Sequence record: DRR723986_19395
Length of the DNA stretch: 64,000 nucleotides
Reading direction: 5' to 3' (one strand)
A program made the translations under genes and the position numbers. This document shows positions 14,501 to 58,280 of this stretch, piece after piece; position 1 is the first letter of the stretch; each line of letters begins with the position of its first letter. The notes beneath the pieces were generated by a model, which worked only from the letters and a program-made list of their open reading frames with translations, searched no databases and was not told the DNA's origin.

Positions 14501-16165
14501 ATGTCGCAATCAACGGAGGTTTCTGAAACGCTTAAACCATTTAAATCCATTGGAGTCTGCTTTAGCGGCGGTGGCTACAGAGCTACAGCTTTCAGCTTGG
14601 GGGTTTTAGATTACCTGAATAGAATTGAGTTTGAAGGAAAACCGCTACTTGAAAACGTAATAGCGCTTAGCTCAGTAAGCGGAGGGACAATTACTGCAGG
14701 TTTATTTGCCGCGAGCAATGCCAAAGGGGAATCCTTCGAGGCTTTTTATTCAAAACTTTATTCTTTTTTAAAGGAAGATAAGCTGGTAGGGGAGGCTACG
14801 GCAAAGTTTATGGATAATGAATTTTGGCAGACCACGACTAGGAGTAGATCAGTGATTAATGGCTTTGCATTGACATATTATGAGAAGCTAGTTGCTGAAA
14901 GCTTTGAGGATTTAAAGCCGCAGAAAATACAAGGTCACTTGAAGTATGTCTGCTTTAATGCTACTGAATTTACATATGGGTTGACTTTTAGATTTCAGAA
15001 CGTTAATAAGTTTGGGAATTATGAATTGAAATGTGATCAGCTTCAAGCTGTATTGAGCGACATACGGATTGCCGATGCAATTGCTTCTTCCTCATGTTTT
15101 CCCGTAGGGTTTGCGCCCATGATTTTCCCAAATGATTACTTAGAAAATCACGAAAGTCAAGAATATATTAACCTGATCACTGTTCCCAAATTTGCCAAGG
15201 GTGTAGGTATAATGGATGGAGGTATTGTGGATAATCAAGGGATTGGCAGCATGGTGAATTTTGATAAGAGTTCTCAGGAAGGTTTTCCTTTAGATCTACT
15301 TATTGTGAATGATGTAGATGGTTTTGTTATGCCACCTTGGAATCTTTATCAAGGCGCAAATTCAAGTGAGGGTAAAGAACCGTTCTCTTCCTATGTTGCA
15401 GGGTGGCTAGGGCACCTTCAAATGAAGTCTATTTATTGGATTGGTCTGTTGATAGGCTTATTTGGATTAATATTCACTAGTGTTTTAGACGTATTTTTTG
15501 AGAAAACCTGGATTTTGGTTTATGGTATTTCAAGTGGGTTGATCGGCATATTTGCCGTATTAACTAGCTTGGGGCTTTTGGGTGATTACGTAGTGAAAAA
15601 AGCTAAGAATGAAGTGCAGGGAATGGTTAAAAATGTCTTGCCACATGCCTTGCTGGATGACGTGGAGAGATTCGCCAATTTGGAAGTAAATCAGGTAAAA
15701 GATATGGTGATCAATAGATGGACTTCAGCGCTACTAATGATTAATGAGATATTCCTCAGACAAATAAGAAGGTTGAATTTTGACTTGCTTTATACCACCC
15801 CAAAATTCGTTAATCGAAGAGTAACTTCAACAGTGTACCAACTGAACGGAAAGCAAAACACGATCAGTGATGAAAAACAAAAAGAAAAGGCGGATGATAT
15901 CACTGTATCGAAAAAAATTAAAGAATCTGCGCTTCTCGCTTCGCAGATGCCTACCACATTGTGGTGGGATAGCGAGGACTTAAAAGTGCACCGTCAGGAT
16001 AACCTTATCGCTTGCGGACAGTTTACTACTTGTTACAATCTAATAAAGTACATTCAGAAACTTCCTTCAGAATATCAAACGGATCAGGTAAAGAATCTCC
16101 ATAAAGCCCTTTTGGAAGATTGGGAACAATTCACTGCCGACCCATTAATTTTTGTAAGGAAATAG
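14501..16165 (+). CDS. Patatin/cPLA2-like phospholipase with an internal TM hairpin
   Basis: SGGGYRA oxyanion motif, SVSGG nucleophile elbow, ASSSCFP and DGG; two hydrophobic helices near residues 310-360. Confidence 0.85.
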   Translation: MSQSTEVSETLKPFKSIGVCFSGGGYRATAFSLGVLDYLNRIEFEGKPLLENVIALSSVSGGTITAGLFAASNAKGESFEAFYSKLYSFLKEDKLVGEATAKFMDNEFWQTTTRSRSVINGFALTYYEKLVAESFEDLKPQKIQGHLKYVCFNATEFTYGLTFRFQNVNKFGNYELKCDQLQAVLSDIRIADAIASSSCFPVGFAPMIFPNDYLENHESQEYINLITVPKFAKGVGIMDGGIVDNQGIGSMVNFDKSSQEGFPLDLLIVNDVDGFVMPPWNLYQGANSSEGKEPFSSYVAGWLGHLQMKSIYWIGLLIGLFGLIFTSVLDVFFEKTWILVYGISSGLIGIFAVLTSLGLLGDYVVKKAKNEVQGMVKNVLPHALLDDVERFANLEVNQVKDMVINRWTSALLMINEIFLRQIRRLNFDLLYTTPKFVNRRVTSTVYQLNGKQNTISDEKQKEKADDITVSKKIKESALLASQMPTTLWWDSEDLKVHRQDNLIACGQFTTCYNLIKYIQKLPSEYQTDQVKNLHKALLEDWEQFTADPLIFVRK

Positions 16166-16378
16166 TTATCACTTTTGCTGCTTTTTATCGAGTAGTAGGG
16201 GGAAATGAGGTGGTTTTTGTACAATAAAATTAACTAGTAACAACGGTTTTCAATGAGTTTTATGAAATATAGATTCAAGAAGCTGTTTCTTGGCTGAATT
16301 TTCCATACGTGTTGAATAGAATCAATTAGTATATTTGGAAAGGCAAATAAGCAATTTTTTATTGTAGGATTAAGACCT

Positions 16379-16386
16379 TAGCTTTG
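16379..16386 (+). promoter_or_regulatory. -7 promoter box (TAGCTTTG) of sucA
   Basis: Exact TAnnTTTG match 22 nt before the ATG. Confidence 0.55.
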
Positions 16387-16408
16387 GATTCTTCTTGAAC
16401 AATTAACA

Positions 16409-19201
16409 ATGGATAAGTTTTCTTATATCGCTAATGCTCACGTGTCTTATATCGATGAGCTATACTCTTCTTACAAGAGTGACCCAGAATCAATCGACCC
16501 AAGCTGGAAAGAGTTTTTTGACGGCTTTGACTTTGCACTAACCAACTACGGTGAAGAAGAGGTCGGAGCTTTGTCAAATGGAAAGTCTACTCCTCCTGCC
16601 AAAAATGGCGCACTTGCCACTCCAGGTACCATTATGGACATGGAGCAATTGCCTAAGGAAATTAAGGTAAGAGCATTGATTCATGCTTACAGATCTCGAG
16701 CTCACTTGAGATCAAAGACTAACCCTGTACGAGAGCGAAGAGATAGAAAAGCTTTGATCGACCCTCAGGACTTTGGGTTGGGGCAGGAAGACATGAATAC
16801 CGAATTCCAAGCTGGTAACGAGATTGGTATTGGTTCTGCAAAACTTTCTAAGATTTTAGATTCTTTAAAGTCTATTTACGAAGGATCTGTAGGGTTTGAA
16901 TACTTATATATACGCGATCCGGAGATGTTGGATTGGTTTAAAACTAAAGTAGAAAAAGAAGCTTTAGCATTTAACCCAACTCATGAGGAGAAAAAAAGAA
17001 TCCTTTCGAAACTTAACCAAGCGGTGGTTTTCGAAAACTTTTTGCACACCAAATATCTTGGTCAAAAGCGTTTTTCACTGGAAGGTGGAGAAAGCACCAT
17101 TCCATTCTTGGATGCTGTAATTAATACTTCTTCTCAGTTAGGCGTGAAGGAAGTGATGATAGGCATGGCTCACAGAGGTCGTTTGAATGTTTTGGCAAAT
17201 ATAATGGGCAAAACCTACGAGCAGATTTTCTCTGAATTCGAAGGAACAGCCAAGCCGGATTTAACAATGGGCGATGGGGATGTGAAATATCACATGGGTT
17301 ATTCCAGTGATATTGTGACGCATTCGGAGAATAAGGTTCACCTGAAACTAGCGCCAAACCCTTCTCACCTAGAGGCTGTGGATCCAGTAGTGGAAGGTTT
17401 CCTACGTGCAAAGATCGATTCAGAATACAAAGGTGATTATACCAAAGCACTTCCAATTTTGATTCATGGAGATGCTGCTATCGCTGGTCAAGGAATCGTT
17501 TACGAGGTGACTCAGATGGAAGATCTGAAAGGTTATAATACGGGTGGTACGATCCACTTTGTAATCAATAATCAAGTTGGTTTTACTACCGATTTTGATG
17601 ATGCCCGTTCTTCTATCTATTGTACTGACATTGCCAAAATCATTGACGCACCTGTCATTCACGTGAATGGTGATAATGCTGAGGCTGTAGTATTTGCAGC
17701 AAAACTTGCAGCGGAATTCAGACAAAAATTCAGCCGTGATATTTTTGTGGACATGGTCTGCTATAGACGTCATGGGCATAATGAGTCTGACGAACCGAAG
17801 TTCACTCAGCCAGAACTTTACAACATCATTTCTAAACACCCAAATCCAAGAGAGATCTACGTGAAGCGCCTCGCTGAACGTGGTGATGTGGAAGCTAAAT
17901 TGGCTTCGCAAATGGATGAGGAATTCAGACAGTTGCTTCAGGATCGTTTGAATTTGGTAAAGGAAAAGCCTCTTCCATATCAGGCAACTCGATTCGAAGA
18001 AGAATGGAGTAACTTGAGAAGATCTAAGCCAGAGGATTTTGATCAATCCCCTCAGACTGGTGTAACTCAGGAGCAAATAGAAAAAGTTGCTGAAGCGCTT
18101 ACTGTGATTCCTAAAGGATTTAAGCCGCTTAAGCAGATTGAAGCCCAGCTGAAGCAGCGTAAAGACATGTTTTTCCAGTCTAAATCATTAAACTGGGCAG
18201 CAGCAGAATTACTTGCTTACGGTTCCTTGACTTTGGAAGGAAAGACTGTTCGATTGACTGGCCAGGATGTGCAAAGAGGGACTTTCTCTCACCGTCATGC
18301 GGTCCTTCATGATGCCAATACAAATAAAGCCTACAATTCCCTAAAAGAAATGAAGGACAGAAAAGGTGAATTCTATATCTACAATTCACTTCTTTCTGAA
18401 TACGCGGTTTTAGGTTTTGAATATGGTTATGCCATGGCAAACCCAAATTCCTTGACGATCTGGGAAGCACAATTTGGTGATTTCGCCAATGGCGCTCAAA
18501 CCATGATTGACCAGTTTATTACCTCTGGTGAATCAAAATGGCAGAAAATGAACGGTTTGGTAATGTTGCTTCCACATGGCTATGAAGGTCAGGGACCAGA
18601 GCACTCCAATGCACGTCCGGAAAGATTCCTGCAGCTTGCTGCTGAATACAATACAATTGTCGCTAACGTAACTGAGCCGTCTAACTTCTTCCACTTGCTG
18701 AGAAGACAGCTGGCTTGGGAATTTAGAAAGCCATGTATTGTCATGTCGCCTAAGTCTTTGCTTAGACATCCAAAAGTAGTTTCTCCACTTTCCGAATTTA
18801 CTTCGGGTACTTTCAGAGAAGTACTTCCAGACACTACCGTGAATGCTAAAGATGTGAAACGTGCAGTGCTTTGCTCAGGCAAGATTTACTACGATTTGGA
18901 AGAAGCTCGCGAGAAAGAGAAAGTAAAAGATGTGGCTATCGTTAGGATCGAGCAACTACACCCACTTCCTAAGAAGCAGATGCTGGATGCTTTGTCTGCT
19001 TATCCAGAAGCTGAATTAGTTTGGGTACAGGAAGAACCATCTAACATGGGCTATTGGAATTATATGTTAAGACTCCTTTATAAAGAATTACCTATGGAGG
19101 TGATCGCAAGAAAAGCAAGTGCTTCGCCTGCCACAGGATATAATAAAGTCCACGTAGAAGAGCAGAAAAATATTGTTGCTCAGGCACTTAAATTGAAATA
19201 A
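16409..19201 (+). CDS. sucA: 2-oxoglutarate dehydrogenase E1
   Basis: KRFSLEGGE, GMAHRGRLN, HGDAAIAGQG, RGTFSHRH, WEAQFGDF and PHGYEGQGPEHS motifs. Confidence 0.97.
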   Translation: MDKFSYIANAHVSYIDELYSSYKSDPESIDPSWKEFFDGFDFALTNYGEEEVGALSNGKSTPPAKNGALATPGTIMDMEQLPKEIKVRALIHAYRSRAHLRSKTNPVRERRDRKALIDPQDFGLGQEDMNTEFQAGNEIGIGSAKLSKILDSLKSIYEGSVGFEYLYIRDPEMLDWFKTKVEKEALAFNPTHEEKKRILSKLNQAVVFENFLHTKYLGQKRFSLEGGESTIPFLDAVINTSSQLGVKEVMIGMAHRGRLNVLANIMGKTYEQIFSEFEGTAKPDLTMGDGDVKYHMGYSSDIVTHSENKVHLKLAPNPSHLEAVDPVVEGFLRAKIDSEYKGDYTKALPILIHGDAAIAGQGIVYEVTQMEDLKGYNTGGTIHFVINNQVGFTTDFDDARSSIYCTDIAKIIDAPVIHVNGDNAEAVVFAAKLAAEFRQKFSRDIFVDMVCYRRHGHNESDEPKFTQPELYNIISKHPNPREIYVKRLAERGDVEAKLASQMDEEFRQLLQDRLNLVKEKPLPYQATRFEEEWSNLRRSKPEDFDQSPQTGVTQEQIEKVAEALTVIPKGFKPLKQIEAQLKQRKDMFFQSKSLNWAAAELLAYGSLTLEGKTVRLTGQDVQRGTFSHRHAVLHDANTNKAYNSLKEMKDRKGEFYIYNSLLSEYAVLGFEYGYAMANPNSLTIWEAQFGDFANGAQTMIDQFITSGESKWQKMNGLVMLLPHGYEGQGPEHSNARPERFLQLAAEYNTIVANVTEPSNFFHLLRRQLAWEFRKPCIVMSPKSLLRHPKVVSPLSEFTSGTFREVLPDTTVNAKDVKRAVLCSGKIYYDLEEAREKEKVKDVAIVRIEQLHPLPKKQMLDALSAYPEAELVWVQEEPSNMGYWNYMLRLLYKELPMEVIARKASASPATGYNKVHVEEQKNIVAQALKLK

Positions 19202-19288
19202 TTACAGCTCTTTTTATAAAGACATCCAAAATAATCGTATCATTTTGTTCCTCTCTTTTTGACTAGAAAGAGAAAAATAGAAAAACTT

Positions 19289-20815
19289 ATGAGCAAAGAA
19301 ATTAAAGTCCCAGCGGTAGGAGAATCCATCACGGAAGTAACTATCGGTCAATGGTTTAAAAAAGATGGAGAGGAAGTTCAGATGGACGAAGTCCTTTGTG
19401 AACTGGAATCTGATAAAGCCACTTTTGAATTGCCGGCAGAAGCTGCGGGCGTGCTTAGAATCAAAGCCCAAGAAGGTGATGTACTGGAAATAGGAGCTGT
19501 GATCTGTGAAATCGACGAAACTGGAACTCCAGGTAAATCTGAGCCAGCTGCTGAAGCTGCACCTAAAGCTGAAGCAAAATCTTCTGAATCAAAAGCTACC
19601 GGAGAAGTGAAAGACATGGTAGTGCCTACTGTAGGTGAGTCTATCACGGAAGTTACTTTGGCTAACTGGCTAAAAGGTGATGGAGATTATGTGAAGTTGG
19701 ATGAAATCATCGCTGAGGTAGATTCTGATAAGGCTACTTTTGAATTGCCAGCTGAGGCATCAGGAATTCTTCGCCACGTGGCGCAAGAAGGCGATGTGCT
19801 TGAGATTGGTGGAATGATCTGTAAAATCGAAGTGACGGAAGGCGAACCAGCGGCTGCAGCTAGTTCTGAATCTTCTTCTGAATCAGCTCCAGCAGCTGCC
19901 TCAGGAAATACAAACTATGCTACTGGACATGCGTCTCCTGCAGCTTCGAAGATTTTGGCAGAAAAAGGAGTTTCTCCTGAGTCTGTAAAAGGAACTGGAA
20001 AAGACGGTAGAATTACTAAAGAAGATGCTCAATCTGCTCAAAAAGCTGCTCCAGCTCCAGCAAAAGCTGAAAGCAAACCAGCGGCGGCTTCTGCTCCTGC
20101 ACCAGTTGCTGGTTCTAGAAACGAGCGCAGAGAGAAAATGTCTTCTTTAAGAAAAACAGTTGCAAAGCGTTTGGTTTCTGTGAAAAATGAAACAGCCATG
20201 TTGACCACATTCAATGAGGTGAACATGAAGCCGATCATGGATTTGAGATCCAAATTCAAAGAGCAATTCAAAGAGAAGCATGGTGTAGGACTTGGTTTCA
20301 TGTCCTTCTTCACCAAAGCTGTTTGTGTAGCCCTTCAGGAATGGCCTGCAGTAAATGCTAAAATTGACGGAAACGAGATCGTTTACAACGATTACTGTGA
20401 TATCTCAATTGCCGTTTCTGCTCCAAAAGGATTGGTAGTTCCGGTAATCAGAAATGCTGAAACACTAAGCTTTGATCAGGTAGAAAAAGAGGTTGTAAGA
20501 TTGGCGATGAAAGCTAGAGACAACAAGCTTTCTATAGAGGAAATGACTGGCGGTACGTTCACATTGACTAACGGAGGAATCTTCGGTTCTATGATGTCAA
20601 CACCTATCATCAATGCTCCACAATCTGCTATTCTAGGTATGCACAACATCGTGCAGCGTCCGATGGCTGTGAATGGTGAGGTTGTTATCCTTCCGATGAT
20701 GTACTTGGCACTTTCTTATGATCACAGAATCATCGATGGCCGTGAGTCAGTAAGCTTCCTGGTTCGAGTAAAAGAATTGCTTGAAGATCCGACCAGATTG
20801 TTGTTTGGAGTTTAA
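19289..20815 (+). CDS. sucB: Dihydrolipoyllysine-residue succinyltransferase E2 with two lipoyl domains
   Basis: Two E(L/V).[11 protein letters not shown] lipoyl motifs, [12 protein letters not shown] subunit-binding domain, YDHRIIDG catalytic motif. Confidence 0.96.
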
Positions 20816-20820
20816 TTGTT

Positions 20821-20848
20821 GTACAAAGTACCAAGTACAATGTACAAC
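20821..20848 (+). repeat. Left heptamer array, 4 x GTAC(A/C)AN
   Basis: gtacaaa gtaccaa gtacaat gtacaac, starting 5 nt after the sucB stop. Confidence 0.9.
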
Positions 20849-20872
20849 GTGTTGTAGTATAGGTAATTATGT

Positions 20873-20913
20873 TGTTTTAGGTTAAATTGATAGTTGATTT
20901 TTAACCTAAAACA
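20873..20913 (+). promoter_or_regulatory. 14-bp perfect hairpin directly upstream of the four-helix-bundle start codon
   Basis: tgttttaggttaaa (20873-20886) is the exact reverse complement of tttaacctaaaaca (20900-20913). Confidence 0.75.
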
Positions 20914-20920
20914 CAATCCT

Positions 20921-21274
20921 ATGAATCGTTTCAAAGAATTACTTGTTTGGCAAAAAGCCATTGATTTAGCTGTTGAAGTTTACCATATCACAGAGAAATT
21001 ACCTAAAGAAGAACGGTATGGTTTGATAAGCCAGATCAACAGAAGTGTTATTTCGATTCCATCTAATATTGCAGAAGGTGCAGGTAGAAACACAAGTAAA
21101 GAATTTAATAATTTCTTGGGAATAGCCCAGGGATCTTCTTTTGAATTAGATACTCAGTTGATTATTTCTAATCGCCTGAATTTTATTTCGAAAGAAGAAT
21201 ATCAAAAAGTAGAATTAGAGCTTGAGCATATTCAGAATATGATTGCTAAGCTTAAGAAAAGTCTAAATGTTTAA
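20921..21274 (+). CDS. Four helix bundle protein (23S rRNA intervening-sequence protein / TIGR02436-like family)
   Basis: FKELLVWQKA, LPKEERYGLISQINRS..SIPSNIAEGAGR and FLGIAQGSSFELDTQL are family signatures; ATG at 20921. Confidence 0.92.
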   Translation: MNRFKELLVWQKAIDLAVEVYHITEKLPKEERYGLISQINRSVISIPSNIAEGAGRNTSKEFNNFLGIAQGSSFELDTQLIISNRLNFISKEEYQKVELELEHIQNMIAKLKKSLNV

Positions 21275-21278
21275 TTTC

Positions 21279-21313
21279 CGGATACTTGGTACTTTGTACT
21301 AAGTATCTGGTAC
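21279..21313 (-). repeat. Right heptamer array, 5 units, inverted relative to 20821-20848
   Basis: cggatac ttggtac tttgtac taagtat ctggtac; 21283-21299 is the exact reverse complement of 20821-20837. Confidence 0.9.
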
Positions 21314-21325
21314 AAAGACAATAAA

Positions 21326-22723
21326 ATGTACGACGTAATAGTTATAGGTTCTGGTCCAGGTGGATATGTTGCAGCGATTCGCTGTGCGCAGCTTGGGTTG
21401 AAAACCGCCATTGTTGAAAAATACCCAACGCTAGGAGGGACTTGCCTGAATGTGGGTTGTATCCCGTCCAAGGCATTGTTGGATTCCTCTGAGCATTATC
21501 ATAATGCAGCTCACACGTTCGAAACTCACGGCATTAAGTTGAGCAATTTGAAAGTAGATTTGAAGCAAATGATTACCCGTAAGAATGACGTGGTAAAGCA
21601 AAATACAGATGGGATTGATTACTTGATGAAGAAGAACAAAATCGATGTTCATCAAGGAGTTGGCTCTTTCGTAGATAAAACTACTGTGAAAGTGACTAAA
21701 GATGACGGTTCTGCTTCTGACATTCAGGGTAAAAACATCATTATAGCAACCGGTTCTAAACCATCTACTTTGCCTTTCATTAAGATCGACAAAGAAAGAG
21801 TGATCACTTCTACTGAAACTTTGAACTTGAAAGAGATTCCAAAGCATCTAGTAGTAATCGGTGGCGGAGTAATCGGTTTGGAGCTAGGTTCTGTGTATGC
21901 GAGATTGGGAGCGAAAGTTTCCGTGATCGAATTCATGGATTCATTAATTCCTACCATGGATCGCACCATGGGCAAGGAACTTCAGAAGTCCTTGAAGAAA
22001 ATTGGCTTTGAATTTTTCCTGAAGCATAAAGTAACTTCTGTTGAAAGCAAAGGCAAAGAAGTGACTGTGAAAGCTGAGAATGCAAAAGGTGAAACGGTAG
22101 AAGTGAAAGGCGATTATGTCTTGGTTTCAATTGGTAGAAGACCTTACACTGATGGCTTGAATGCTGAAGCTGCAGGTGTGAAAATCACCGACAGAGGTCA
22201 AGTGGAAGTGAATGATCATCTTCAGACTAATGTGCCAAATATCTATGCAATCGGTGATGTGGTGAAAGGCGCTATGCTAGCTCACAAAGCTGAAGAGGAA
22301 GGTGTTTTTGTTGCTGAGACAATTTTGGGTCAAAAGCCACATATCAACTACAACCTGATTCCTGGTGTAGTTTATACTTGGCCGGAAGTAGCTGCAGTTG
22401 GATATACTGAAGAGCAATTGAAGGAAAAAGGCATCAAGTACAAGGCTGGTAAATTCCCTTTCATGGCTTCCGGCCGTGCGAGAGCATCCATGGATACGGA
22501 TGGATTGGTGAAAGTTTTGGCAGATGCTGAGACCGACGAAATCCTAGGTGTGCACATGATTGGTCCAAGAACAGCTGATATGATTGCTGAGGCAGTAGTT
22601 GCTATGGAATATAGAGCGTCTGCTGAGGATATTGCTAGAATGTCTCATGCTCACCCAACTTATACAGAGGCATTCAAAGAAGCTTGTTTGGCTGCTACTG
22701 ATAATAGAGCGCTACATATTTAA
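21326..22723 (+). CDS. lpdA: Dihydrolipoyl dehydrogenase E3
   Basis: GSGPGGY, GGTCLNVGCIPSK, GGGVIGLE and HAHPTYTE motifs. Confidence 0.97.
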   Translation: MYDVIVIGSGPGGYVAAIRCAQLGLKTAIVEKYPTLGGTCLNVGCIPSKALLDSSEHYHNAAHTFETHGIKLSNLKVDLKQMITRKNDVVKQNTDGIDYLMKKNKIDVHQGVGSFVDKTTVKVTKDDGSASDIQGKNIIIATGSKPSTLPFIKIDKERVITSTETLNLKEIPKHLVVIGGGVIGLELGSVYARLGAKVSVIEFMDSLIPTMDRTMGKELQKSLKKIGFEFFLKHKVTSVESKGKEVTVKAENAKGETVEVKGDYVLVSIGRRPYTDGLNAEAAGVKITDRGQVEVNDHLQTNVPNIYAIGDVVKGAMLAHKAEEEGVFVAETILGQKPHINYNLIPGVVYTWPEVAAVGYTEEQLKEKGIKYKAGKFPFMASGRARASMDTDGLVKVLADAETDEILGVHMIGPRTADMIAEAVVAMEYRASAEDIARMSHAHPTYTEAFKEACLAATDNRALHI

Positions 22724-56867: not shown

Positions 56868-58103
56868 ATGAAAAAAAGATTTCAAGACCTTACCTCTTTA
56901 GATTTTTATACAAATAAGAAGCAAGTCAAATGGCTTGTCGTTGCGGCCTCACTAATCATAGGAGCAGGTTCGATTTGGTATACTAATAGTCTGGTGGAGG
57001 AATTGCGCGAGCGGGAAAGGAGGCAGATCGAATTGCTGTCCAGTGCGCTGGAGTATGCAGCTACTACGATGGAGAATCTCACGTTTATCAATCAGGAGAT
57101 CATCCAACAGAATTATTCCATTCCGATCATTATGGTGGATGATTCGGCCAATCCTATTGAATTTAGAAATATACCTTTTAAGAATAATGCAAGTGCTGCC
57201 GATTCTGCAGAAACGCTGCAAAAGGAGCTGGCAGAGATGCGAGCGGAGTACGAACCTATTTTGCTTCCAGAGGCAGATATTCTGGTTTATTACAGGAACT
57301 CTGAATTGCTGATTAATCTAAAGTATTATCCTTACGTGCAATTAGGAATTATTCTGATTTTTGGGGTATTGGCTTATGCGCTTTTCAACCAAAGTAAAAT
57401 TGCCGAGCAAAACCGTGTGTGGGCTGGTCTTACTAAAGAAACTGCGCATCAATTGGGAACGCCGATCGCTTCTTTGATGGCTTGGATTGATTACCTGCGA
57501 AACTCTCCAGTCTGGGAGGAAAATAAGGAAATCATCACCGAAATGGATAAGGACGTGGTGAAGCTGAGGATGGTGACGGAGCGATTTAGCAGTATTGGCA
57601 GTAAGCCCGTGATCCAATCAGGGAATGTCTACGAAGCAATTGACGAAACAATTAATTACCTCCGTCCGAGAATATCTACCAAAGTGGATTTGAATATTCA
57701 TGCAGACACTAAGGATCTCGATGCGATGATGAATAAGCCACTGTTTGAGTGGGTGATAGAAAATATCTGTAAAAATGCTGTAGATGCGATGAAGGGTAAA
57801 GGGCAGATTGATATTACCATTCTACAGGATAGTGATAAGTATGTGATTATAGATATCACAGACACCGGGAAGGGCATGGAAAAGCGAATGTACAAACGTG
57901 TATTTAATCCAGGATTCTCTACCCGTCAAAGAGGTTGGGGGCTGGGTTTGACGCTCGCAAAAAGAATCGTGGAAGGATATCATGGCGGGAGGATTTTTGT
58001 CAAAAACTCAGAAGTTGGAGTAGGAACCACCTTTAGGATATTGCTTCACGGAAATCATGAAGGGGCCTCACAGTTTATTACCGAGGGAATCTTGGAGTAT
58101 TAG
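56868..58103 (+). CDS. Orphan membrane sensor histidine kinase
   Basis: Two TM helices; H box ETAHQLGTP, N box ENICKNAVDA, DTGKG, F.PGFST and GWGLGL. Confidence 0.92.
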   Translation: MKKRFQDLTSLDFYTNKKQVKWLVVAASLIIGAGSIWYTNSLVEELRERERRQIELLSSALEYAATTMENLTFINQEIIQQNYSIPIIMVDDSANPIEFRNIPFKNNASAADSAETLQKELAEMRAEYEPILLPEADILVYYRNSELLINLKYYPYVQLGIILIFGVLAYALFNQSKIAEQNRVWAGLTKETAHQLGTPIASLMAWIDYLRNSPVWEENKEIITEMDKDVVKLRMVTERFSSIGSKPVIQSGNVYEAIDETINYLRPRISTKVDLNIHADTKDLDAMMNKPLFEWVIENICKNAVDAMKGKGQIDITILQDSDKYVIIDITDTGKGMEKRMYKRVFNPGFSTRQRGWGLGLTLAKRIVEGYHGGRIFVKNSEVGVGTTFRILLHGNHEGASQFITEGILEY

Positions 58104-58104
58104 G

Positions 58105-58260
58105 GATTTGTGATTTCGGATATATGATTTACGAGATTCCCGATAGAGTTAAGCGAAAACTACTATTCTGAGCTTTTTGAAAAAAGAATGAAGGTAAACT
58201 TGTAGGCAAAGATCGAAGTCCCAATTGAACTCGTAAATCCAAAATCGTAATTCGTAAATT
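58105..58260. repeat. Inverted heptamer arrays enclosing about 90 bp, possibly a decayed four-helix-bundle cassette
   Basis: Left arm gatttgt gatttcg gatatat gatttac gag; right arm ctc gtaaatc caaaatc gtaattc gtaaatt. 58126-58135 is the exact reverse complement of 58230-58239. Confidence 0.75.
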
Positions 58261-58280
58261 CTTTCCACCTATTTTTTCCC

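Follow-up and report, generated by a model that had tools for sequence, protein, structure and literature searches.

A putative promoter-less cassette with inverted heptamer arms in the sucB-lpdA spacer of an Algoriphagus, and its likeness to the intervening sequences of 23S rRNA

The closest described counterparts of the element treated here are the intervening sequences (IVSs) of rRNA genes, which are recognised by their location in a helix of 23S or 16S rRNA and by terminal complementary sequences able to close a stem, and some of which (in Coxiella, Leptospira and others) carry an open reading frame (ORF) of the PF05635 or S23p family. In the sections of Warrier et al. (2016; PMC4990558) drawn upon here, the Coxiella 23S IVS is described as having a terminal stem of 28 bp and an S23p ORF preceded by tandem GACAGAT heptamers, of which there are two or three depending on the strain. 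In vitro this IVS is cleaved by RNase III, on the 5′ side at the first heptamer, and the S23p protein of Xanthomonas is cited there as a homopentameric toroid. Here, a gene of the same family is described from the spacer between sucB and lpdA, on a stretch of 64,000 nt from sequence record DRR723986_19395 (the window), where it is enclosed by two arrays of tandem heptamers that are inverted copies of each other. With a probability of roughly one half, we read this insert as a promoter-less, single-gene selfish cassette of the kind seen in ORF-bearing 23S IVSs, lodged in a spacer of the sucA-sucB-lpdA mRNA.

The short tandemly repeated repetitive (STRR) sequences of Cyanobacteria are a class of tandem heptanucleotide repeats. 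Intergenic heptamer repeats without an assigned function are reported from Beggiatoaceae, Cyanobacteria, some Bacteroidetes and Xanthomonas in the passages used here of two papers (MacGregor 2015, PMC4679880; Rehm et al. 2015, PMC4692102), in both of which term searches returned no mention of four-helix-bundle, S23 or IVS proteins. The protein family itself is called uncharacterised, Avd-like or enriched in cas loci in the relevant parts of four further papers (PMC11270868; PMC10053308; PMC10910872; PMC3936711). Within the full-text literature outside subscription journals and supplements, no paper was found that ties these genes to heptamer arrays outside rRNA.

The sucB-lpdA spacer of the window measures 510 nt, from the sucB stop codon (TAA, 20813-20815) to the lpdA ATG, and holds a single ORF. 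By its profile matches, the encoded protein is a clear member of PF05635 (E 2.2e-41, 140.8 bits with a cut-off of 33.8), and it also exceeds the cut-offs of TIGR02436 (133.5 bits, cut-off 24) and NF008911 (144.4, cut-off 137). The R-x3-S-x3-N-x2-E motif given for the family in the part of PMC3936711 used here is present as R41, S45, N49 and E52, of which S45 and E52 are invariant in the protein alignment and the other two nearly so. The structure model is a confident four-helix bundle (pLDDT 94.9), with helices at residues 8-24, 29-54, 59-85 and 91-115, and superposes with TM-scores of 0.95 on 2gsc (Xcc0516), 0.85 on 2rld (BT_0352) and 0.80 on Avd (4dwl); the sequence match to 2gsc by phmmer is 2.7e-23, and the 2gsc and 2rld entries hold five chains each. 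No further PF05635-like gene was found by tblastn in the 64 kb of the window, a weak match at 58247-58279 (E 5.1) being set aside as noise. PADLOC gave no defence-system match, and Rfam gave no rRNA or other family, either over the whole window at gathering thresholds or over the cassette at E up to 10. The hairpin directly before the cassette ATG (Table 1) is kept at that place in orthologous cassettes with differing stem sequences, its fold z-score being -2 or lower in 7 of 15, and is not followed by a T-run.

The initial annotation of this DNA, made from the sequence alone, had described the 117-aa gene, the four and five heptamers on its two sides and a perfect 17-bp inverted repeat between them, and all of these are confirmed (Table 1). 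The 17-nt repeat can be extended to 32 nt at 75% complementarity. In the right arm, two of the five cores are degenerate (ATAC and GTAT), and the last GTAC ends 12 nt 5′ of the lpdA ATG. The three-unit GTAC pattern GTACNNNGTACNNNGTAC, with at most one mismatch, has five matches in 64 kb, all of them at this locus, compared with 0.02 expected, and none of 100 shuffles reaches five: the heptamer pattern at the cassette is not a product of chance. With four and five head-to-tail units in intergenic DNA, both arms also fall under the usual description of tandem heptanucleotide repeats (at least three to four 7-nt units). Eight orthologous cassettes were aligned; their synonymous sites are saturated, but no GTAC core varies among them. 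The three in-between positions and the adjoining non-coding DNA do vary, which shows constraint on the arrays themselves. Furthermore, the arms of chromosomal cassettes form better predicted duplexes with their own partner (mean -30.9) than do shuffled arms (-11.5; permutation p 0.0018). As a separate observation, GTAC is scarce over the window as a whole (125 sites, with 229 expected from base composition), and seven perfect GTAC sites are crowded into the two arrays despite this scarcity.

Table 1. Positions of the cassette, its host genes and a gene-less array pair in the window
Feature	Position	Strand	Remarks
Four-helix-bundle gene, 117 aa (PF05635 / TIGR02436, 'S23p' family)	20921..21274	+	profiles, structure model, dN/dS
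Left arm, 4 tandem heptamers GTACAAA GTACCAA GTACAAT GTACAAC	20821..20848	+	begins 5 nt past sucB stop
Right arm, 5 inverted heptamers ATACTTG GTACTTT GTACTAA GTATCTG GTACAAA	21282..21316	+	
Perfect 17-bp inverted repeat, left half	20821..20837	.	100% complementary
Perfect 17-bp inverted repeat, right half	21283..21299	.	100% complementary
14-bp perfect hairpin directly 5′ of cassette ATG	20873..20913	+	inverted-repeat search
sucB (2-oxoglutarate dehydrogenase E2), upstream host gene	19259..20815	+	NF004309 646.9 bits, TIGR01347 606.6 bits, Pfam 2-oxoacid_dh
lpdA (dihydrolipoyl dehydrogenase), downstream host gene	21326..22723	+	TIGR01350 600.9 bits
Gene-less element, inverted GATTTNN / TCGTAAN heptamer arrays around ~90 nt	58104..58262	.	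between two + strand genes

A collection of species-representative genomes was scanned with the SucB protein of the window, yielding 80 loci (numbered L below), and sucB and lpdA are adjacent in 41 sequences, the window included. The best of the 80 loci belongs to Algoriphagus winogradskyi (L001), with SucB 97% and LpdA 99% identical to the window, so that on protein identity the window is from an Algoriphagus close to A. winogradskyi (Cyclobacteriaceae, Bacteroidota). A PF05635 gene or its remains lies in 16 of the 41 spacers, and 25 are empty. The filled sites share one layout, in which the sucB stop is followed by GTACNAA-type units and lpdA is preceded by TTNGTAC-type units, sequence variants of these being carried by the most distant filled copies (L005, L044 and L066), and each of the 16 chromosomal copies of the cassette gene is co-oriented with the gene upstream. 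In the closest relative, A. winogradskyi (98% host-protein identity), the site is empty, and the spacer is 103 nt long and contains GATTTAC-type heptamers and a short GC hairpin. DNA identity between the two runs up to the sucB stop codon and returns about 17 nt before the lpdA ATG. Identity to A. winogradskyi along the window follows a mosaic profile of 50 to 100%; the flanks adjoining the cassette are 95.5-97.5% identical, and beside it no rise in divergence of the kind expected from an imported tract was found above the genome-wide mosaic. On a quick tree of SucB plus LpdA, no fewer than 12 changes between filled and empty are required, a minimum of nine of them imposed by branches with good support, and the two states show no clustering on it (187 of 500 shuffles were as low); five pairs of sisters differ in state (window/L001, L010/L019, L044/L050, L002/L017 and L066/L079). 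Judged from these alleles, the insert is a cassette rather than a member of the operon. Two further observations concern the genus Belliella. The remnant in B. buryatensis and the intact Indibacter cassette (L010 10119-10282 and L018 12058-12109) have an identical 52-nt right flank, and B. pelovolcani (L019), the sister of B. buryatensis, has a different spacer without the gene.

Eleven of the 16 filled copies are intact and five are damaged, by early stops (L004 at codon 3, L014 at codon 5), an aberrant C-terminus (L044), multiple stops (the L012 pseudogene) or a deletion that has left about 30 C-terminal codons together with both arrays (L010). The intact genes are under purifying selection, as judged from ratios of non-synonymous to synonymous divergence (dN/dS) of 0.04-0.10 in the Algoriphagus-type pairs with estimable dS, several other pairs being saturated in dS. 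Identity between cassette proteins tracks identity between hosts (Spearman 0.80, 91 pairs). The host topology is nevertheless rejected by the cassette alignment (approximately unbiased test, p 2e-5), a comparison made on about 120 columns only and with L010 and L012 excluded, and the window gene groups with that of L014 (bootstrap 99), to which it is 89% identical, compared with 84% for the host proteins. Taken together, the cassette looks like a long-standing resident of the sucB-lpdA site that has often been lost and has undergone some exchange among related lineages, rather than the result of recent transposition.

The same architecture is found around relatives of the gene elsewhere. When the 80 loci were searched with a profile of the cassette proteins, one paralogue away from sucB-lpdA was found, in Pontibacter mucosus (L059), where it is enclosed by two other genes of the same strand, preceded by TTAACAA-type units and followed by TGATAAN-type units. 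A tblastn search of a plasmid collection gave 33 records, 22 of which were taken for analysis, the others (H3, H6, H11, H16, H22, H25, H28-30, H32 and H33) apparently being near-duplicate or partial by the hit table; a second search with the Riemerella protein as query brought in no further Bacteroidota loci. Period-7 arrays within 150 nt of the gene were scored automatically, at a lag of 7: an upstream array is present in 15 of the 22 plasmid loci and a downstream array in 16, and 14 loci combine the two, compared with 0-4 loci at lags 5, 6, 8 and 9. Array density is about 30-fold higher in the flanks (31 matches in 6.6 kb) than elsewhere in the same loci (8 in 58 kb), and six of these eight outside arrays carry the same heptamer as the arms of the local gene. 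These counts overstate independence, since some plasmid loci are close copies of one another (L096/L097, L089/L099, L092/L093 and L086/L094).

The heptamer itself changes from plasmid locus to plasmid locus (GGGAACA/TGTTCCC, AGGGTGT/ACACCCT, GGTTTAA/AACCTTG and CAGAGGA/TCCTCTG, for example) while the two arms match each other, and arms form better duplexes with their own partner than across loci, none of 5000 permutations doing as well. An unbiased local alignment recovers an inverted repeat scoring at least 12 in 28 of 38 loci; the repeat is weak or absent in L083, L086, L094, L095, L101 and L102. Usually only tens of bases separate the gene from each neighbour. The host strand could be established for 21 plasmid loci (for 20 by annotation and for L088 by rRNA match, with L101 placed by neither), and in 18 of these the four-helix-bundle gene runs in the direction of the gene or rRNA upstream of it, the exceptions being L083, L084 and L095. 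The relatives are found in cas operons, conjugation operons and rRNA. In cyanobacterial plasmids, the gene lies between cas6 and cas4 (L082, 1501-1860; L090, 1483-1851) or between cmr2 and cmr3 (L100, 1486-1842), with flanking heptamer arrays that are direct in L082 and inverted in L090, and with a weak inverted repeat and no period-7 arrays in L100; such wedging between cas or cmr genes could be the reason that the family came to be counted as CRISPR-associated. In L088, from a plasmid of Azospirillum lipoferum, the gene lies with the same kind of heptamer arms inside a large-subunit rRNA gene (Rfam 2540 bits), which makes it a true 23S rRNA IVS. The same layout thus surrounds PF05635 relatives in several bacterial phyla. 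The initial annotation had tied its reading of an IVS-like cassette tolerated in a core operon to the existence of empty alleles and of inverted heptamer flanks around paralogues. Both were found, the former at 25 of 41 sites, the closest relative among them, and the latter in P. mucosus, on plasmids and in the true 23S IVS of L088, so that this part of the reading stands up well.

When held against the ORF-bearing 23S IVSs, including that of L088, the element agrees in protein family, in the sense orientation of the gene relative to the host transcript, in terminal inverted repeats composed of tandem heptamers, in the decay of the ORF in some lineages and in its patchy distribution. Its terminal sequences are complementary and able to close a stem, as the perfect 17-bp repeat indicates. 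It differs in location, which is a helix of rRNA in the described cases and an intercistronic mRNA spacer between two protein-coding genes here, and by this defining property it falls outside the IVSs proper; in addition, excision by RNase III has been demonstrated for the rRNA cases only. We conclude that the element probably works in the same way as the ORF-bearing 23S IVSs, to which it is evidently related.

The likeness to other systems is more partial. The accessory protein Avd of diversity-generating retroelements (DGRs) shares the four-helix-bundle fold, and the cassette protein also matches DGR ribonucleoprotein entries in structure and Avd weakly in sequence (PHROG Avd 3e-7). An assignment to Avd was rejected, since the scores stay below the cut-offs of NF033474 (26.8 bits, cut-off 80) and of bAvd PF22296 (21.1, cut-off 40), and since the immediate neighbours are sucB and lpdA rather than a reverse transcriptase or template and variable repeats. 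The published tandem heptanucleotide repeats (TAACTGA of Beggiatoaceae, Cyanobacteria and some Bacteroidetes, and GGGNATC of Xanthomonas and Nostoc) are likewise short intergenic 7-nt arrays, often abutting start or stop codons and patchy across phyla, but in the portions of those papers used here they are stand-alone direct repeats, whereas the arrays in question are inverted pairs around a PF05635 gene. Finally, miniature inverted-repeat transposable elements (MITEs), repetitive extragenic palindromic (REP) elements and integron gene cassettes are also small, intergenic, terminally symmetric and expressed from outside, and have no transposase or carry only a promoter-less gene. They differ in that the arms here are runs of tandem heptamers, in place of an attC site or of an inverted repeat of unique sequence, in that no target duplication is seen and no integrase or integron platform is adjacent, and in that no identical copies are visible in the 64 kb window.

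Heptamer arrays are also present without the gene. The element at the far end of Table 1 begins with its GATTTNN units directly after the stop of the gene ending at 58103, and the fold predicted for it is closed by a long stem. The left array of this element can be aligned with its counterpart in the 'empty' A. winogradskyi sucB-lpdA spacer, and the 'empty' spacers of relatives still hold period-7 arrays just before lpdA. Period-7 arrays are furthermore seen in sucA-sucB spacers of Pontibacter and Pedobacter (L022 9892-10009, L028 9928-9959, L031 8324-8371, L034 9855-10013 and L059 9881-9990), several of them as inverted pairs with a short loop and no four-helix-bundle gene. Over all loci, 51 intergenic arrays of period 7 were counted, compared with 6-24 for other periods; L034 (21074-21176) contains a run of 15 perfect ACTATGG heptamers, and in Aquiflexum lacus (L004, 13553-13585) a solo GTAC-type array follows the lpdA stop with no inverted partner nearby.

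A three-step mode of action can be proposed for the cassette. Its gene would be expressed by read-through of the operon transcript, because it lies on the same strand, its junctions with the host genes are tight (5 nt and 12 nt) and no promoter or terminator signal rises above chance. A scan for sigma-70 promoters and intrinsic terminators gave four sites with 3.1 expected, using a model that does not cover Bacteroidota promoters, and the one terminator-like site in it falls inside the cassette ORF. In the transcript, the arms would then pair into a stem of at least 17 bp, which by analogy with the rRNA cases would be a substrate of the RNase III type, and its cutting would leave the cassette RNA separate from both sucAB and lpdA; as each arm can fold on itself, the pairing of the arms may be switchable. 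In addition, the heptamers are probably a protein recognition site, since GTAC is conserved as a sequence and not just as pairing potential. The candidate for the recognising protein is the cassette's own product, and the pentameric rings of its family would offer roughly one subunit per heptamer. This last step draws indirectly on the five-chain structures 2gsc and 2rld, the fold match to Avd in DGR ribonucleoprotein entries and the four to six units per array of the Bacteroidota cassettes.

Several results weigh against this interpretation or parts of it. The long-range stem, which the initial annotation had proposed to loop out the gene in the mRNA, is predicted for 11 of 15 orthologous cassettes, with 17-42 pairs in the minimum-energy fold, but finds little in its favour in the window copy, where each array folds into local hairpins and only six pairs are long-range, so that the annotation's interpretation as a whole is partly supported. 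These local folds arise because GTAC is its own complement, and the duplex of the window arms (-30.5) has to compete with self-folds of -12.8 plus -20.9. Mismatches between arms comprise 31 G.U, 38 A.C and 83 transversions (p 0.47), and with no excess of G.U wobbles there is no pointer to the arms acting as RNA rather than as DNA: their complementarity could equally be a property of DNA, such as that of terminal inverted repeats. A role at the level of RNA pairing only is also made less likely by the conservation of the sequence itself. As to the protein, it is not basic (pI 6.7; K+R and D+E both 15), which lends no general support to nucleic-acid binding, and the authors of PMC4990558 conclude, in the part used here, that the Coxiella ORF, reported as decaying, is probably not translated, whereas the window protein belongs to a set under purifying selection. 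Arrays have between 3 and about 38 units, the longest being cyanobacterial, and one heptamer per subunit fits this range only loosely. Among the plasmid loci, 8 of 22 do not reach arrays on both sides at the threshold used, those of L082 are direct rather than inverted, and, as described above, arrays also exist with no such gene nearby. With regard to mobility, no target-site duplication was recognised in six comparisons of filled and empty sites, no transposase or other mobility enzyme lies near the cassette, and the nearest cassette gene (L014) is synonymously saturated relative to the window, which leaves no sign of recent movement.

The strongest rival explanation, which we consider unlikely, takes the insert for a MITE-like non-autonomous DNA transposon, whose arms would be terminal inverted repeats, the binding site either of a transposase from another locus or of the four-helix-bundle protein as a mobility factor, and in which RNA pairing would be incidental. 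Arms that are complementary without an excess of G.U pairs suit such an element, and so do its presence and absence between near-identical flanks with breakpoints at the spacer edges, the recurrence of the layout in many unrelated contexts, the gene-less array pair at 58104-58262 and a left array that is shared, each time after a stop codon, by two unrelated loci in close relatives. The idea also has a precedent, as the part of PMC4990558 used here cites an older proposal that the IVS was once a mobile element with its ORF serving mobility. However, the missing target-site duplications and the absence of a nearby transposase speak against a transposon as well, and the co-orientation with host transcription, in 18 of 21 plasmid loci plus all 16 chromosomal copies, is unexpected for an element acting as DNA only. 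The saturated dS between cassette genes at the site, a sign of ancient divergence, and the correlation of their identity with that of their hosts point in the same direction.

Somewhat more doubtful is the proposal that the arrays regulate the host genes in cis, for example at translation, with the four-helix-bundle protein as a trans-acting regulator encoded beside its target, a proposal that overlaps with the recognition of heptamers by protein in the third step above. The position of the right array just 5′ of the lpdA ATG would fit, as would the arrays kept before lpdA in 'empty' spacers and those in the sucA-sucB spacers of other genera; for TAACTGA, too, the passages of MacGregor (2015; PMC4679880) used here place most repeat sets just upstream of start codons and propose an unidentified post-transcriptional regulator. 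Yet many genomes retain the operon with the gene absent or broken, the same layout occurs inside an rRNA gene, and the heptamer differs from cassette to cassette while the arms remain inverted copies of each other, a pattern that fits an element better than a regulon. We reject, as very improbable, the view of the gene as a normal accessory member of the 2-oxoglutarate dehydrogenase operon next to unrelated, slippage-prone simple sequence. The position of the gene implies co-transcription, it is under purifying selection and it occupies the same site in several genera, and heptamers are the commonest long simple repeats in bacteria according to Mrazek (2007), as cited in the parts used here of PMC4679880 and PMC4692102. 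Against this stand the empty sites, including that of the closest relative, the damage to 5 of 16 copies, the relatives in cas operons, conjugation operons and rRNA, and the enrichment of arrays in the 150-nt flanks of the gene.

With respect to the surroundings of the cassette, profile matches place sucA at 16409-19201, upstream of sucB. A block upstream of sucA (window ~16015-16415) is only 50-67% identical to A. winogradskyi, compared with 93-100% for the neighbouring genes, and a search of its divergent part 5′ of sucA (~16166-16408) found no heptamer element. One of the 80 loci, L003 (4214 nt), is titled as a metagenome-assembled genome of an uncultured Limnohabitans but encodes a SucB 80% identical to that of Algoriphagus, and is probably mis-binned.

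Three loose ends share the signature described here: the function of PF05635 (S23p, Avd-like) proteins, the origin of ORF-bearing 23S IVSs and the meaning of intergenic heptamer repeats. It is conceivable, if at present speculative and rather unlikely in its full breadth, that PF05635 pentamers and heptamer arrays form one widespread, unrecognised class of single-gene selfish elements residing in operon spacers and rRNA helices, in which the ring protein recognises, and perhaps helps to create or spread, runs of 7-nt units. Such a class would take in the ORF-bearing 23S IVSs and the 23S_rRNA_IVP genes labelled 'CRISPR-associated', and many of the heptamer repeats known from Cyanobacteria, Bacteroidota and further phyla would belong to it as arms that are decayed or stand alone. 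If the more limited reading of the sucB-lpdA insert as a selfish cassette is true, elements of the IVS type would not be peculiar to rRNA but would colonise operon spacers, including that of an operon of the tricarboxylic acid cycle, which they leave unbroken, and family genes found inside cas or conjugation operons would be hitch-hikers rather than components of those systems. Algoriphagus, a harmless bacterium with filled and empty sites in sister strains, would offer a tractable model for RNA processing, for the binding of the protein to the repeats and for mobility.

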